DNA of 64,000 bases from a bacterium (GTDB lineage: Bacteria; UBA8248; JACPRG01; G963555815): positions 1 through 64,000 of the forward strand of contig CBDHDG010000004.1 of assembly GCA_965261595.1 (NCBI GenBank). The letters run 5' to 3'. This document shows positions 24,001 through 30,000 of this stretch, piece after piece. Position 1 is the first letter of the stretch, and each line of letters begins with the position of its first letter. The position numbers are program-made.

Positions 24001-27000
24001 GGTGATAACAGGTGCAACGAAAGTGGCCGTTGTAGGCCGCACCTTCCTGCTCCCCATGGACGGGGCTTTCCGAGCTGTCCATGTCCAGGATGATTCGCTG
24101 ATGGGGTGAGTGTGCCATGGCCCGGTCCACCCACTCCCGGTTCAGCTCGCTCCGGCCCCTTGAGATTCTCCTCCCTGGTGAGAACCTCGGTCTCGAACCG
24201 GCTCAGGGTGTTGGCGCCCGCCGCCTGCTTCTCAAGCGCTCGGCGGCCGACCACGGCTTGCATCGCGGGGTCCTGGGCCAACCGCTCGGCATCGTTGGTG
24301 TCTTCATACCCTGCCAAGCGGCTATAGACCGACTGGCGCAATAGCGGCGCCAACTCATGCTGGATGTTCCGGCCATGACGGATCTCTTGCAATTGCACTG
24401 GCGCTCTCACCGTCAAACCCAGCGCATCATCCAGCTCCCGGCAGGCCAGCAATCCCGCATCCGAAGTGATTCTGGTTCCGTGAAACTCAAGCCTCAGCCG
24501 ACGGTCAAAACGGATCTTCAAAGCCCCCTTCTTCGCTTCACCCATTGGGTCCCCTCGCAAGATGATGGCAGGGAGAGGCCAACACCTTGATCTTACACGA
24601 GAAAACGGCATTCGGTCCGACAAAACTTATGATCCATATGGGAAATGCGGGTCAAGAAGATTGCCGATCGAATCGGCGGCAAGCACGACACGGTCAAGCG
24701 CATGGTCAATGCGATCTATGTGCTGGAACAGGCTTAGGATGAAGGAATCTTTCGCATTGATGATCGGGCGAGCACGCGGTTCAACTTCTCGCACCTTTAC
24801 ACGGCGTTGTCTCGTGCGCCTTATATGCAGTTTCTCGGTCTGGAAGCTGCCTGGTTCCGCTACGATCCGAATCCGGATCCGGTTCCCGCTGATGGACTGG
24901 AACCGCTGCGCGAAGTTTTGAAGTGGTTGTATGGATCACGGGAGGCAGACGTGCTTCCGGTGGTTCAATCTCAAAATCCGGACATCAAGCATCTGGGAGA
25001 AGTCCTCGCCAGTAGCGAGGGACTGACGGTTCTTAGGGGGACCGGCTCGCTCTCCGAAGCCCATGCGAGCACACAGCCTGCCGACCGCAAGTTCTCCGAG
25101 TCGTTACTGAGAGCGAGGAGGGAAGTTCGTGAGGCATCCAACAGTCTGCGCGGATTTGATGGCCGCGATGTGGCGCTTGTCGACATCGCTGAAGACATTT
25201 TCGAGACGGCCCAGACGATTCATGACCGAATGAAAAAGAAAATGCGAGACGCCGCGATGGGTGGCGAATGAGCGCTGCGGTCTATCTTCCATCCGATGAA
25301 TTCGGCGGCACTCAGCCTCCTGATTTGGACCTTGCGTCGGACTACCTTGAGTTGAAGGCCATTTTCTCTGCAGACAGACAGTCCTTCAGTGAGGACATCG
25401 TTGACGCATTGGAGCTCGCGGCCGAGGCTGAATTCGATGATGTCAACGCCGAGATAGAGGCTCGCGAGGATGTCGCAGCCGGTGCGGTGGCTCGCATGAC
25501 ATCGCGCAAACGCGCGCTTGCGACGGCCTACCCGTTCGACCTCGATGACCGTGGAGACGCGATTTTCTTCACCGCCGAACAGCCGGACCTCGGACAGGCT
25601 GCCTATCTGGTGTCGCTCTTGCTATCCAACCTTCGCGCGCTATCCCCTCTGCTCGACGGTTCCGAAATGCATCCGTCGGACCACGAGGTGCGCCAGCTTC
25701 GCCAGCATTTTCAATATTTCGCAACAGCCGCGATCGCAGCGGAGATCGGTGGACCTGCCTGGTCCTTTGGACATCCGCGGCCTGACGGTACGGGGTTCAT
25801 CAGAAAGCTCTCCGAAATCTGGGCCGTGCTGAAAGACGGAAGCGTCAAAGCCGACCCCGCTGCGCCAGCCGCCCCCAAGGACGATCAAGTGGACGTCTTC
25901 GCTTGGCGTGAGCAAAGAGACGGCTTACCCGGATTTCTCCTGGTTGCTGCGCAGGTGGCAACGGGCAGGAACTGGAGAGACAAGACGATCAAGTCCCATA
26001 TTGACCGTGTGTTTGCCGCTCGCTGGTTCGATCGTCCTCCCGCAACCGAGATGGTCGTGTACCACGTTGTTCCATTTGCTCGGCCGGATCACAAGTTCCG
26101 CGACGATGTATTGGTGCTGGGCAATGTGCTGCATCGCCTTCGCGTTCCGCGTCGGGTGACTGAGGCTGTTGACCTTGCCCAGAACGGCGTAACGATCGAG
26201 GCGATCGACAAGTTGGAAGCAGCGACGGAATGGATCAGGTCATACATGGAACGGGCGAGGGGCGCATGAGACACCGTTTCCATTCCATTTGCCCGTATTT
26301 CGCGATGTTCCCTGAGACCTTCGTCGAGAAACATCTTGCGGCGACGAGATTCGATGGTGTGGTCTTTGATCCGTTTTGCGGGCGCGGCACCACGGTCTTC
26401 GAGAGTCTCATACGCGAACGGAAAGCCGCCGGATGTGACGTGCACCCCGTTGCCGTTTGTGTGTCCGGCGCCAAAAGTGATCCGCCGACGCGTTCCGAAG
26501 TCTTCGAACGGCTATCCACGTTGGAGGGAGAGAGCTTTTCGTTCAGAGCCAGCGACAACGGGGGGGAACTGGCCGAGTTCTTCAGTCTCTGTTTCGAACC
26601 GGCAACTTACGACCAGGTTTACTTTCTGCGGAACAACCTCGATTGGCGCAAAGATCGCACCGACCGCTTTATTGCCGCGCTGTCACTTGGGGCGCTACAC
26701 GGAGAATCTCACCGGAGCCTCAACTACTTCAGCAATCGAATGCCGAGGACGATCAGTACGAAACCGGCTTACTCAGTACGATGGTGGCGTAAGAACGGGT
26801 ATGAGCCTCCAACAAGGGATGTGTTTTCGATCCTGAGGCGCACGAATGACTACCGTTTCAAAACCAGTCCGCCCGACCGACGCGGTGAAGTAGCCCTGTC
26901 GGACGCGAGAGATGCGGCCGGAAGTTTTCCTCATCTGGCCGGAAAGGTAACGGACGTCATCACGTCGCCGCCCTATCTGGACACAACGAACTATCGTGAA

Positions 27001-30000
27001 GATCAATGGCTACGATTGTGGTTTCTTGGTGGAGAGGCGACCGTCAGCCATCGGCGCTATGACGGCCGTCACTACAATGTCGACAAGTACCGAACATTTC
27101 TGACCGAAGCATGGGCGGGCATGGCCCCGCTTCTGGCCAACGAAGCACGCATGGTCGTGAGGATCGGAGGACGAAAGCTCAATAGGGATGAGATCCTGGA
27201 AGCTCTCAGAAACTCGCTCGAATGCGGAATCAAGCGAAGCGTTCACCTTATTGATGCCGGCGTATCGTCGCCGGTCAGGCATACGCAGGCCAATGCATTC
27301 CGTGGCTCGAAACCGTCGCCGACGGTTGAGCACGACTTCTGTTTTCTGCTGCGGTAGTAGGCCTGCCCTGCATCGACGCAATCGCCGTCGGACAGGTGCG
27401 GTGACAAGCTCCGAGCAGAAAAGGTCCATGAACAGGGCGGCCGGACATTAACCCTGATTCTCCGGCACGGATCGCTTAGGCGGTGAACTCGACCTATCGA
27501 GATTGGCGAGAATATCAAGAAGCCGTGGCCAGCTTTTTTCGGGAACGCGGCTGCAAGGTTAACGTTGAAGCCAAGATAACAGGTGTTCGCGCAACGCACT
27601 GCATCGATGTGGATATCACCTTCCGTCAGCATGGCATTGAGTGCCGCTGGATAGTCGAGTGCAAGCTGTGGAAGGGACGCGTGAAGAAAGAGAATGTCGA
27701 AGCCCTGAAGAGCATCGTCGACGATATCGGAGCCGATCGCGGGATCCTCTTTTGCGAGAACGATTTTCAACCAAGTGCGCGAGATGCCGCTCGCAACACA
27801 AACGTCCTTCTCCAAACGTCCCTTGAGGAGTTCAAACGGACGGTGTGTCTTGACAAGACGCGCGCTACCCTCGTCTACAAGGAGTCCGACGAGCCCGACG
27901 CCTCGCCGGTCCAGTTGTTCCTGAACGGCGACCAGCCACACCATCTCCTGCTGTATGGCGGTCGCGTGTTCGTCGGAAACTGGGGAACAGGCAACATTTC
28001 AATAGTTGATCCCGCGACCAAAACGATCGAGAGCACAATCGCTCTGGACAAGTACGAAGCCTCGCCGTCCGCCGGCAACGGGCGGGTGATCAGATCATAT
28101 CTGCCCGGCGACATGGCGTGTGCCAATGAGAAAATCTTCGTTGGACAGGTTTTTTCTGATTTTGTCCTCGCCATCGACATCGACACGCAATCGATCGTCA
28201 AGCGAATCATGATCCCAGGGGGCGGCGAAGGTGCGATCGCTGCCTCTCAGGATGGGCGATGGATCTATTTCGCCAGCAACCAAGTGAATGGCTTCTTCAT
28301 CATCAACAGCGCAACCTACGAGTATCGGAAAGTCGATTATCCGACGGGAGGCAAGGGCAGTTTGTGTGTTCTTCCACATCCATTCAAACCGCTTCTCTAC
28401 GTCGGTATCCAGCGGGGCGGCAATCTCAACGGTAGAACCTACCGTGGTGGCAATTGCTTTCTCGCCACGTATGATCTGGCCGAGGACCGTTATGTCGAAT
28501 CACTCTATCTCGCAGAAGTTGAGAACGGCCGAAGCGACGACTCGATGCCGATCTGCTTGATATACGATGAGGAAGAAGAATGTCTCTTCGTAGGTATGTT
28601 TCAGTCACGGCAAGGTATCTGCCGCGTCGATGAGCGTGGCCGAGAGATTCTTGCGAACATCCGCTTCCTGCCAAACGCGAGGAACAAGCACTTTCGTTGG
28701 GTGGACTTACCCCGGTTTCGTGGAGAGTTAAGCACTTGGGTTTTCAGGGTGTGCGTTGTTGTCTCCTTTCGTAGTTAACGGGTGACAGGTTGTCGATGGA
28801 GGAGTGCCGACGATGCGGGTTGTAGAAGCCCTCGATGAACCCGAACACCTCCATGCGCGCCTCGGCCCGGGTGCGGAAACTGTGGCGAGCGAGGAGCTCG
28901 CACTCCAGCGTGGCGAAAAAGCTCTCACACAGCGCGTTGTCGTAGCAGTCCCCGACCGAACCCATGGAGGGACGCCCGCCCGCCTGCCGGCAGCGCTGCC
29001 CAAAGGCGACCGAGGTGTACTGCGTGCTGCCCTGGTCGGAGTGGTGGATGACGGCCCGGGGACGGCGCTTATACAGCGCCATGTCGAGCGCGTCGAGCAC
29101 CAACTCGGCCCGCAGGTGTGTGGCCATCGACCACCCCACGATGCGCCGGCTGAACGCATCGAGCGCCACGGCCAGATACAAAAACCCCGCCCATGTCGGA
29201 ACGTAGGTGATGTCGGCCACCCACAGCCGGTCGGGGGCCTCGGCCGTGAAGTTGCGGTCCACCAGATCAGGGGCCGGCCGCGCCTCCTGCCGGCGCTGCG
29301 TCGTGCGCGCTCCCTTGCGCCGACTGACGCCCGCAAGTCCCGCCCCACGCATCAGCCTGGCGACGCGCTTGCGGCCCACACGCACTCCCTCAGCCTCCAA
29401 CTCGGCATGGACGCGCGGCACGCCGTAAGTCCCCCGAGAACGCTCGTGGATCGCCTGAATGCGTTTGGTGAGCGCCCGATCGGCACACGAGCGGGCACAC
29501 GGCGCGCGCCTGCGCCACGCGTAGTAGCCGCTGGAGGAGACGCCCAGCACCCGGCACATGGTGGCGGTCCGATACATGGCCTGGTTCGCCCTCACGAACC
29601 CGTAGATCCGGACGGGATCGAATCGGTATCCCGAGCAAACCAGGCCGCGGCTTTTGCTAAGATCTCCCGCTCCTGGCGGAGCTGTCGGTTCTCGCGGCGA
29701 AGTCGGCGCAACTCCTCCCGCTCATCGCTCGTGAGCCCGTCTTTGCGACGCCCCTCGTCAACGTCGGCTTGATGGGCCCAGGTGCGGATCGTCTGCGCCG
29801 AGGGCTCGAACTCGTGCGCCAGCGCCTCGGGCGTGCGTCCCGCCCGGACCAACTCTACCATCTGGCAGCGGAACTCCATTGGATAGCGTGGGTGAGTCTG
29901 TGGCATCGTGAACACCTCCTTTACCCCCAAATCATCAGGTGTCCACCAAACCGGGTCAACTCCAGCGGTGACCCGAATGTTCTTTTGTTGTGTCTGCACC

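Follow-up and report, generated by a model that had tools for sequence, protein, structure and literature searches.

Described systems that resemble the locus

PD-lambda-5 is a validated defence system of broad protection, for which the host needed a deletion of mrr and which is interpreted as 'RM+Abi' where the paper deals with it (Vassallo et al., 2022; PMC9519451). It is counted among the HEPN-bearing systems in a preprint (10.1101/2024.10.26.620412). Like the locus presented here, PD-lambda-5 is linked to a methylase and is found on mobile elements, and its protein PD-Lambda-5_A begins with the same ParB-like domain as the first protein of our locus (henceforth A, followed by B and the methyltransferase C). 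On the other hand, PD-Lambda-5_A is a single protein (428–613 model positions), of which A covers only the first ~160–240, and the effector beside A is a separate protein of winged-helix/PD-(D/E)xK fold, in contrast to the fused PD-Lambda-5_A. The methylase of PD-lambda-5, PD-Lambda-5_B, is a D12 enzyme, whereas that of our locus is a permuted N4/N6 enzyme; the D12 type flanks A and B at other loci (see below).

In the window, residues 16–166 of A match PD-Lambda-5_A of PADLOC at 5.7e-20; this A and its relatives match ~24–26 PD-Lambda-5_A models, with E-values down to 1e-22, and A of the window falls short of the full length. A full-length PD-Lambda-5_A does occur at three related loci (L019, L058, L022), where A and B stand directly ahead of a complete PD-Lambda-5_A and PD-Lambda-5_B in one row; there it is an additional gene (positions 1–461 of 463, E 1e-164), distinct from A. 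The best PADLOC matches of C are MTase_II models, and PD-Lambda-5_B is absent among the 25 of its 34 matches that are listed.

In P2-like phages, trios of ParB-like, B-like and methylase genes are found at the genome end. Phage Wphi (NC_005056) displays the same order with orf98-orf96-mth, and a like trio is present in Pseudomonas phage vB_PaeM-D14A (BK061475). Wphi gp98 is 27% identical to A across 77% of its length; Wphi gp96 aligns with B in hhalign (probability 98.4%, E 6.6e-15, 262 columns), as does the D14A protein (97.6%, E 3e-12). The P2-like phage methylase is a convergent C5-cytosine enzyme, unlike the N4/N6 enzyme of the window. These homologues of B are too diverged for tblastn with B, which gave zero phage matches at E<=0.01. 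The records of gp96 and gp98 are annotated without function, and the papers searched contained nothing relevant on orf96 and orf98. A also aligns to positions 57–363 of PDC-M38A, the component A model of the PADLOC candidate system PDC-M38, which has 715 positions and thus about twice the length of A (E 1e-16 to 3e-21 for A of the loci, 9e-25 for Wphi gp98); none of the papers searched mentions PDC-M38. The idea of a cassette without known relatives was therefore rejected, given the matches of A to PD-Lambda-5_A and PDC-M38A, of the D12 methylases to PD-Lambda-5_B, and of B to Wphi gp96.

GmrSD, SspE and Menshen NsnA-C are described as systems in which a ParB-fold NTPase/DNA sensor is coupled to a nuclease effector (PMC12065111). 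These are DUF262-branch proteins, marked by DGQQR/QRxxxW motifs; their parts are either fused or coupled via an ABC ATPase, and their targets are mostly modified DNA. A, in contrast, is on the canonical ParB/KorB branch and is accompanied by a methylase.

Gene layout and disruption of gene A

The window, i.e. the whole stretch of 64,000 nucleotides that was analysed, carries the locus downstream of T4SS genes and a TrwC relaxase. The cassette is decayed and is situated within the cargo region of a conjugative element. Its corrected layout is as follows:

21837–22373, plus strand: gene A, 5' part (residues 1–179), with the ParB N-terminal domain and the start of the HTH region
22367–22983, plus strand: inserted 617-bp unit with a nucleoside 2-deoxyribosyltransferase-like ORF (22456–22953), outside the cassette
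22980–24655, minus strand: IS of 1676 bp with a DDE_Tnp_1_4 transposase and 20-nt terminal inverted repeats
24654–25271, plus strand: gene A, 3' part (residues 177–381), with the HTH end, a helical domain and a C-terminal helical hairpin; in-frame TAG at 24735–24737
25268–26269, plus strand: gene B, 333 aa, intact, with a winged helix (~10–130) and a PD-(D/E)xK-type domain (~133–315)
26266–27357, plus strand: gene C, 363 aa, intact, a permuted N4/N6 (PF01555) SAM-dependent DNA methyltransferase
ORF 27483–28778: Mrr/beta-propeller gene, an unrelated neighbour of the cassette

The survey's finding was an operon of three overlapping genes, encoding proteins of 106 and 333 aa and a methyltransferase, followed by the Mrr/beta-propeller gene. 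Its ORF coordinates hold (24951–25271 with a GTG start and 106 aa, 25268–26269, 26266–27357, and 27483–28778), and the first three ORFs are indeed joined by ATGA stop/start overlaps, that of A and B at 25268–25271 and likewise that of the B stop with the C start. The make-up of the operon is different, however: the 106-aa ORF is the tail of a split gene A, and the three genes are therefore a broken A, gene B and the methyltransferase. Membership of the Mrr/beta-propeller gene had to be given up, since it is matched in none of the 78 related genome loci that form our synteny set.

What had been taken for a gene of its own comprises the last 106 codons of a ParB/KorB-like A of ~381 aa. The 106-aa sequence does stand directly upstream of the 333-aa gene in all 78 loci (two of them partial matches), and the ORF at this place is at least 340 aa long (median 383) in 72 of these. 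By tblastn, residues 1–179 of A in the window are 68% identical to the intact A of two loci (L031 and L004), and residues 179–381 are 78% identical, with a '*' inside the alignment. A search of the own genome placed residues 2–180 at 21840–22376, while residues 177/179–381 start at 24654/24660 and reach 25268 with one internal TAG stop; it found no intact A elsewhere. Inserted DNA separates the two halves by 2.29 kb, and the listed ORF of 340 aa at 21837–22859 starts as A and continues into this DNA. Hence A is broken in the window, split by the 617-bp unit and the IS and interrupted by a TAG stop, with B and the methyltransferase intact.

The ORF of the 617-bp unit matches PF05014 (1.1e-26). 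The unit has a second copy (99% identity) between unrelated flanks at G000:C6:817610-818220, and it forms a separate contig of 617 nt in runs X1–X3, at a depth of ~2x that of the flanks. The IS is bounded by the inverted repeat I1 (22980–22999 and 24636–24655, 90% complementary) and encodes its transposase in two overlapping frames, 23213–24130 and 23985–24623 (PF13701, 8.5e-97 and 3.6e-30). With the copy in gene A counted, the own genome contains 22 full-length copies of this IS at 99–100%.

A and B are a fixed pair. The end of A is at most 25 nt away from the start of B in 71 of the 78 loci, both genes are intact in 69, and no gene beyond the cassette recurs around them. Identities of A and B co-vary (Spearman 0.78; 496 pairs from 32 loci), and the pair is kept even in a Vibrio prophage with a B of 25% identity, in the order int-A-B-D12 methylase-cI. 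The pair is found in chromosomes, prophages and many phyla; its distribution is patchy, with 4 carriers among 61 related genomes searched, own genome counted.

Protein folds and alternating methylases

In A, a ParB N-domain fold is followed by an HTH DNA-binding domain, and both superpose on ParB/KorB/Noc (Foldseek E 3.6e-6 to 1e-4, probability 1.00), with the repressor KorB as the best structural match. The ParB/Srx N-terminal domain superfamily carries an arginine-rich, GERR-like nucleotide-binding box. In A, residues E86 G87 N88 R89 R90 are invariant among 33 sequences and align with 'AGERRLRA' of 4umk. PF02195 (ParB_N) scores 12.6–18.6 bits in six sequences scanned, against a gathering threshold of 26.3, and a precomputed PF02195 is present for 9 of the best 120 homologues of A. 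By its sequence, A is a divergent ParB_N branch on the canonical ParB/KorB side. With the CTP-gated clamps ParB, KorB and Noc it has in common the N-domain, the HTH and the arginine box; in contrast to them, its C-terminal half is different and ends in a helical hairpin, it is without a ParA partner, and a nuclease-fold protein is its fixed neighbour. Fold and motif suggest that A may bind and hydrolyse CTP or another NTP and may close as a clamp. In 87.5% of pairs, A is better conserved than B.

The survey's claim that the 333-aa protein lacks a family match stands: Pfam, PADLOC and NCBIfam gave nothing better than E 0.03, none of 72 members of the B family match Pfam at E<=0.01, the nine B proteins tested in PADLOC are all without a family match at the E cut-off applied, and the family profile finds nothing below E 0.75 among PDB sequences. 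The family is likewise large and well kept, as claimed, with 672 proteins at E<=1e-5, the best 120 of them 66–100% identical; an exhaustive search returned 669 representatives of 50% clusters at E<=0.001. In the own genome B is present as a single copy. The AlphaFold model of B (pLDDT 95.3, pTM 0.94) displays an N-terminal winged helix and, as indicated by fold matches, a PD-(D/E)xK-type nuclease domain with the alpha-beta-beta-beta-alpha-beta core. Candidate catalytic residues are Q149, D205, D209, Q229 and K239. D209, at the start of strand 210–214, and Q229, in strand 224–230, are invariant in 72 of 72 diverse members, and D205 and K239, which are near them in sequence, are each kept in 71. 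The position of the canonical (D/E)xK lysine is occupied by A231 (71 of 72), in the motif Q229-V-A231, so that the site may be a Q-x-A variant with the lysine possibly relocated to K239. The Type II/IIS enzymes SdaI, FokI, MspJI and BsaWI are built, like B, from a DNA-reading domain and a PD-(D/E)xK domain; yet B is without sequence similarity to them and has the variant motif D...Q-x-A...K, its ParB-like partner is obligate, and its methylase families interchange, with some A-B pairs having none at all.

The assignment of C as a DNA methyltransferase is confirmed by PF01555 (8.7e-11 over two stretches; 42.6 bits, cut-off 26.7) and MTase_II of PADLOC (3.3e-27). Motif I (DPFCGRGTT, residues 35–43) precedes motif IV (TSPPY, ~234–238); the enzyme is thus permuted, and its motif order is swapped relative to 2zie in the alignment. 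That such a methyltransferase stands beside B is only partly general: it is matched in 52 of 78 loci (48 intact, 4 fragments), but 15 carry a D12 methyltransferase next to A and B instead and 11 none, which gives 63 loci with an intact methylase. Where the N4/N6 gene is intact, it starts before the end of B or at most 60 nt after it in 46 of 48 loci. The D12 methylase of the Vibrio prophage and all nine tested from these 15 loci have PD-Lambda-5_B as their best PADLOC match (1e-40 to 1e-120). Among the 11 methylase-free loci, 65 ORFs within ~5–6 kb in nine held no DNA-methyltransferase family; L023 is at a contig end and L053 is truncated. On the tree of B the methylase type switches, with at least 4 changes forced and 6 by parsimony, and D12 carriers (e.g. 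L007) branch inside groups of N4/N6 carriers whose B is very similar. This repeated switching argues against a simple one-site pairing of nuclease and methylase.

Possible function of the cassette

Based on this dataset, we lean slightly towards the view that A and B together make up the restriction half of a defence cassette that is related to PD-lambda-5, guarded by a methylase and decayed here; B probably does the DNA cutting in a widespread ParB-like/nuclease/methylase cassette. The methyltransferase would mark the cell's own DNA, and A would bind DNA via its HTH, as a nucleotide-gated switch or clamp of ParB type. Its C-terminal helical hairpin may contact B and recruit or license it, whereupon the winged helix of B would hold the DNA and the PD-(D/E)xK domain would cut it, in dependence on methylation and possibly to the detriment of phages. 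A and B together would thus play the role of the fused PD-Lambda-5_A beside its D12 methylase. Of the survey's suggestion of a candidate restriction system, the restriction role is retained and the simple pair of nuclease and methylase is not, as two unrelated methylase families alternate and 11 loci have none. Some observations run against the preferred reading: the conservation of A and B across phyla is unusually high for restriction proteins that bear specificity, the putative catalysis of B depends on a displaced K239 in place of the (D/E)xK lysine, and the switching of methylases is awkward if A and B read one methylated site. Broken A beside intact B (the window and 5 loci) and broken B beside intact A (3 loci) indicate that either protein alone is not evidently lethal, which is neutral in this respect.

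In C-R operons, small C proteins time the expression of the endonuclease, and the controller gene precedes that of the endonuclease. An ordinary Type II system, in which B alone is a sequence-specific endonuclease, C its methylase and A a KorB-like regulator timing B, would fit the A-B order with its stop/start overlap, the adjacency of endonuclease-candidate and methyltransferase genes in the window (a Type II feature), the KorB match, the winged-helix DNA reader of B, and also the loss of A beside intact B and C (in the window and 5 loci), as loss of an activator would permit. We nevertheless consider it unlikely: A has 381 aa with invariant arginines of the ParB nucleotide pocket, it exceeds B in conservation, and its N-terminal domain is common to PD-Lambda-5_A, which is no mere regulator. 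With methylases swapped among close relatives of B, and A-B pairs that in part stand alone, this is no plain Type II system. The lone pairs, intact and partly in housekeeping surroundings at the nine loci examined, may rather suggest that A and B are self-contained, e.g. a pair that senses DNA and acts as an abortive or Type IV-like nuclease, with methylases as companions in shared defence islands or as optional add-ons; type and position (downstream or upstream) of the methylases vary, and GmrSD, SspE and Menshen NsnA are described as using nuclease effectors without a cognate methylase (PMC12065111). However, the large majority of loci with an intact methylase, the remnants in four more, the tight spacing of the N4/N6 genes with the ATGA overlap in the window, and the recurrence of the trio with a third (C5) methylase type in P2-like phages make independence from methylation quite doubtful, and a nuclease that depends on methylation would harm its own cell if it shared an operon with a methylase.

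It is improbable that the roles are reversed, with catalysis, as nuclease or NTPase effector, in the ParB-like domain of A, and with B as a dead restriction fold that only reads DNA. Although B has Q-V-A in place of the canonical lysine motif, and Osa and DndB are named among ParB-superfamily nucleases or NTPases (PMC12065111), the retention of D205, D209, Q229 and K239 in 71–72 of 72 members and in the phage homologues is rare in dead domains, and the nearest folds of A are clamp-forming ParB/KorB/Noc rather than nucleases. The location on a conjugative element and the ParB fold might also point to A as a partition or plasmid-maintenance protein of this element, with B and C as unrelated cargo and no defence function. 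This we regard as hardly credible, as no ParA partner recurs, A and B travel together across chromosomes, prophages and many phyla, and the element, with no intact A elsewhere in its genome, persists with A broken.

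The split gene A and its two insertions

The four open reading frames (ORFs) named in the survey's finding are present in the window, and ATGA stop/start overlaps link the 106-aa ORF, protein B and the methyltransferase C:

24951–25271: 106-aa ORF with a GTG start
25268–26269: B, 333 aa
26266–27357: C, methyltransferase, 363 aa
27483–28778: ORF with Mrr_cat domain and beta-propeller

The survey took the 106-aa ORF for a separate gene, which was not borne out, as its frame extends far upstream in related loci. Among 78 related loci compared with the window, 72 display an ORF of at least 340 aa in this frame (median 383), and it ends within 25 nt of the start of B in 71. 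These long proteins (A, ParB/KorB-like) share their N-terminal sequence with a window ORF at 21837–22859. By tblastn, residues 1–179 of the intact A of one such locus (L031) map to 21837–22373 and residues 179–381 to 24660–25268, in the same frame and with a stop in the second block. A search of the own genome (the assembly holding the window) agrees, with one TAG within the second block of A; a TAG is located at 24735–24737. Given the long upstream frame and the alignment in two blocks, the 106-aa "gene" is a fragment of A. Its sequence does stand directly upstream of B in 78 of 78 loci (2 partial), but not as a free-standing gene. An annotation trap is hereby corrected, in which an insertion-split gene had yielded a false "conserved 106-aa protein".

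Two insertions lie between the blocks:

22367–22983: 617-bp unit with a nucleoside 2-deoxyribosyltransferase-like ORF at 22456–22953 (PF05014, 1.1e-26)
22980–24655: insertion sequence (IS) of 1676 bp with 20-nt inverted repeats and a DDE_Tnp_1_4 transposase in two overlapping frames

A second copy of the 617-bp unit, 99% identical and with unrelated flanks, is found on another contig of the own genome (G000:C6:817610-818220), and short-read contigs hold the unit as a separate 617-nt piece, with roughly double the depth of its flanks. It resembles a small, mobile gene cassette; ISEcp1-like one-ended transposition as its source was dropped, because the second copy stands without this IS. The 1676-bp IS is present in 22 full-length copies at 99–100% identity and about 20 partial or diverged ones across the 6.17-Mb own genome, which suggests that it multiplied in a burst not long ago. 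At 40456–41900 of the window stands a relative that has diverged (86%).

No intact gene A was found elsewhere in the own genome, in which B is single-copy. Among the listed pieces, contigs from short reads of the likely source sample end exactly at the insertion boundaries, and none of the listed pieces from four short-read runs bridges the insertion into an unbroken A, although a rare allele could escape notice in contigs. Most likely the cassette is not active in its own genome, and it is probably a dead one among many casualties of the recent IS burst.

Composition of the cassette in related loci

ORFs within 6.5 kb were clustered in the 78 loci, with overlapping-frame shadows set aside. 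Only three families recur widely: B in all 78 loci, A in 77 and the window-type methylase in 52. A fourth family is present in 15 loci.

State of A, B and the methylase in the 78 related loci
Neither gene broken: 69
Only A broken: 5
Only B broken: 3
Both genes broken: 1
Intact window-type methylase: 48 (start before, or at most 60 nt past, the end of B in 46)
Mere fragments of a window-type methylase: 4
D12-class methylase: 15 (upstream of A in 5 loci and downstream in the other 10)
No methylase: 11

Since A is broken and B intact in five other loci, B without A is evidently tolerated. The assignment of C as a DNA methyltransferase was confirmed (PF01555, 8.7e-11; PADLOC MTase_II, 3.3e-27). 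Its SAM motif I lies near the N-terminus and SPPY follows some 200 residues on, an order reversed with respect to the beta-class structure 2zie which it matches, and C is therefore a circularly permuted member of PF01555. The survey's placing of a methyltransferase beside B stands for the loci with an intact window-type gene (48 of 78, with fragments in 4), but in the others the enzyme is absent or of the D12 class. The Mrr/beta-propeller gene, which the survey had listed next to the operon, occurs in 0 of the 78 related loci.

Around nine of the 11 loci counted as methylase-less, the ORFs of 170 aa or more, 65 in all, included no match to a DNA-methyltransferase family; the remaining two are L023, which stops at a contig edge, and L053, which is truncated. 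Upstream of the methylase-less A-B pair of L039 (2832–5942) stands a 1037-aa protein with Mrr_cat_2, ResIII and a Type ISP coupler, in which the scan gave no methylase domain. The methylase-less loci L001 (9124–10650) and L008 (9178–10605) carry same-strand ORFs of 509 aa and 475 aa after B, which have no Pfam or PADLOC match and may be additional partners. The B proteins nearest to that of the window are those of L039 and L001 (83% identical), both without a methylase.

A maximum-likelihood tree built from 76 B proteins shows clustering of methylase type, yet also shifts in it: the D12 label takes 6 changes, of which well-supported branches force at least 4, and for the N4/N6 label the figures are 13 and at least 10. 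Mean identity is 58.4% for A versus 54.3% for B, and the two co-vary (Spearman 0.78; 496 pairs, 32 loci).

Fold of B and links to PD-lambda-5 and phage cassettes

As the survey had reported, B lacks a family match (Pfam best no better than E 0.03; PADLOC 0, NCBIfam 0) and its family is large, with 672 proteins at E≤1e-5, the closest 120 being 66–100% identical; exhaustive search yielded 669 cluster representatives at 50% identity. None of 72 diverse members matches Pfam at E≤0.01, and the family profile has no match below E 0.75 among PDB sequences. An AlphaFold model of B, computed on a 72-sequence alignment with identity down to 26%, reached a pLDDT of 95.3 and a pTM of 0.94. Foldseek with this model gave no PDB match at E≤1e-3, the top rows being FokI (1.7e-3), MspJI and N.BspD6I. 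The ESM Atlas returned unnamed clusters and one HaeII-domain cluster at 0.83, which is below lead level.

All nine D12 methylases tested (of 15 loci) have PD-Lambda-5_B as their best PADLOC match (1e-40 to 1e-120). Three loci, which belong to different proteobacterial records, carry a full-length PD-Lambda-5_A (E 1e-164, 4e-156 and 2e-194, respectively) between B and the D12 methylase, so that A-B stands directly before PD-Lambda-5_A and PD-Lambda-5_B:

L019, 2043–6642
L058, 6859–11409
L022, 6856–11566

With a complete PD-lambda-5 right after A-B, two ParB-headed modules share one D12 methylase in these loci. A passage of PMC9519451 describes PD-lambda-5 as experimentally validated and broadly protective, notes that its cloning needed an mrr-deleted host, and terms it a compacted prophage version of "RM+Abi". 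In part of its text, a preprint (10.1101/2024.10.26.620412) groups PD-lambda-5 with HEPN-bearing and DNA-modifying systems.

No match to B was found in phage records by tblastn at E≤0.01. In plasmid records there were two weak matches, and through one of them a distant B (profile E 7e-52, 25% identical) was located in a Vibrio campbellii prophage, where integrase is followed by A (40% identical), then B, then a convergent D12 methylase (PD-Lambda-5_B, 6.6e-95) and cI. A-like proteins occur in 16 phage records, mainly P2-like. Phage Wphi displays the order orf98 (ParB-like), orf96 and convergent C5 methylase, and a Pseudomonas P2-like phage has the same. Profile comparison identifies Wphi gp96 (probability 98.4%, E 6.6e-15) and the Pseudomonas phage protein (probability 97.6%, E 3e-12) as homologues of B, and the D, D, Q, W and K residues of B line up with theirs. 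The P2-like phage records annotate the B-like and ParB-like genes without function. Literature searches found nothing on PDC-M38, nothing relevant on Wphi orf98/orf96, and, by title or abstract, no work on the A-B-methylase trio among studies of ParB, CTPase or nuclease in anti-phage defence; the hotspot paper of Rousset et al. (PMC9122126) makes no mention of ParB, methyltransferase, methylase or Wphi.

A large unnamed family, not in Pfam, NCBIfam or PADLOC, can now be given a predicted fold with a probable active site, has a fixed partner, and is tied to P2-like phage cassettes and to PD-lambda-5, a validated system that is mechanistically unexplained.

Possible roles of A and B, and the neighbouring cargo

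The survey's observation is partly confirmed, and its interpretation as a candidate restriction system partly supported. The best-supported reading, which we hold with slightly more confidence than doubt, is that the restriction half of a methylase-guarded defence cassette consists of A and B together. This cassette would be a relative of PD-lambda-5 with three genes that, judging from the model, would differ from it in having the effector as a separate winged-helix/PD-(D/E)xK protein. Fold and gene order suggest that A may act as a nucleotide-gated clamp with a hairpin touching B, that B would be the DNA-cutting nuclease, and that methylation would shield the own DNA. Three observations speak against a simple Type II system with one site: methylase families switch, some A-B pairs stand alone, and both proteins are highly conserved. 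The same three observations leave room for A as a mere controller, which we consider improbable, and for A-B as a module working independently of any methylase, which appears somewhat less probable still.

A bolder extension of the restriction-half reading, which we regard as unlikely, is that A-B-methylase cassettes are a distinct restriction-modification class. A CTP-gated ParB-type sliding clamp (A) would load on unmodified DNA and carry or license the winged-helix PD-(D/E)xK nuclease (B), one-dimensional diffusion of the nucleotide-locked clamp would replace the ATP motors of Type I/III systems, and PD-lambda-5 would be the fused compact form. If a ParB-like protein truly gates a nuclease, the CTP-switch principle of chromosome segregation would reach into immunity, and the working of PD-lambda-5 would be explained, too.

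By record title, carriers of the related loci span more than 10 phyla, many being metagenome-assembled genomes, and B has a match in 4 of 61 related genomes searched, own genome included. In the window, F-type T4SS genes, a coupling protein and a TrwC relaxase are found shortly upstream of the locus, which makes the cassette cargo of a conjugative element. Neighbouring cargo comprises:

19745–20419: FRG-domain protein
20907–21404: short UvrD_C-like fragment
30461–31129: NS-type DNA/RNA endonuclease (PF01223, 4.5e-20)

Beside this endonuclease stands a 339-aa protein with no Pfam match at E≤1e-5. In the Mrr ORF (27483–28778), beta-propeller repeats come after an Mrr_cat nuclease domain (2.8e-14). 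This architecture is also that of a single-gene system validated by Vassallo et al. (2022), described in a passage of that paper as "7-bladed beta propeller with N-terminal Mrr-family nuclease" (PMC9519451). The 3′ end of the Mrr ORF adjoins an IS3-type element (28744–30002), and the ORF may be truncated.
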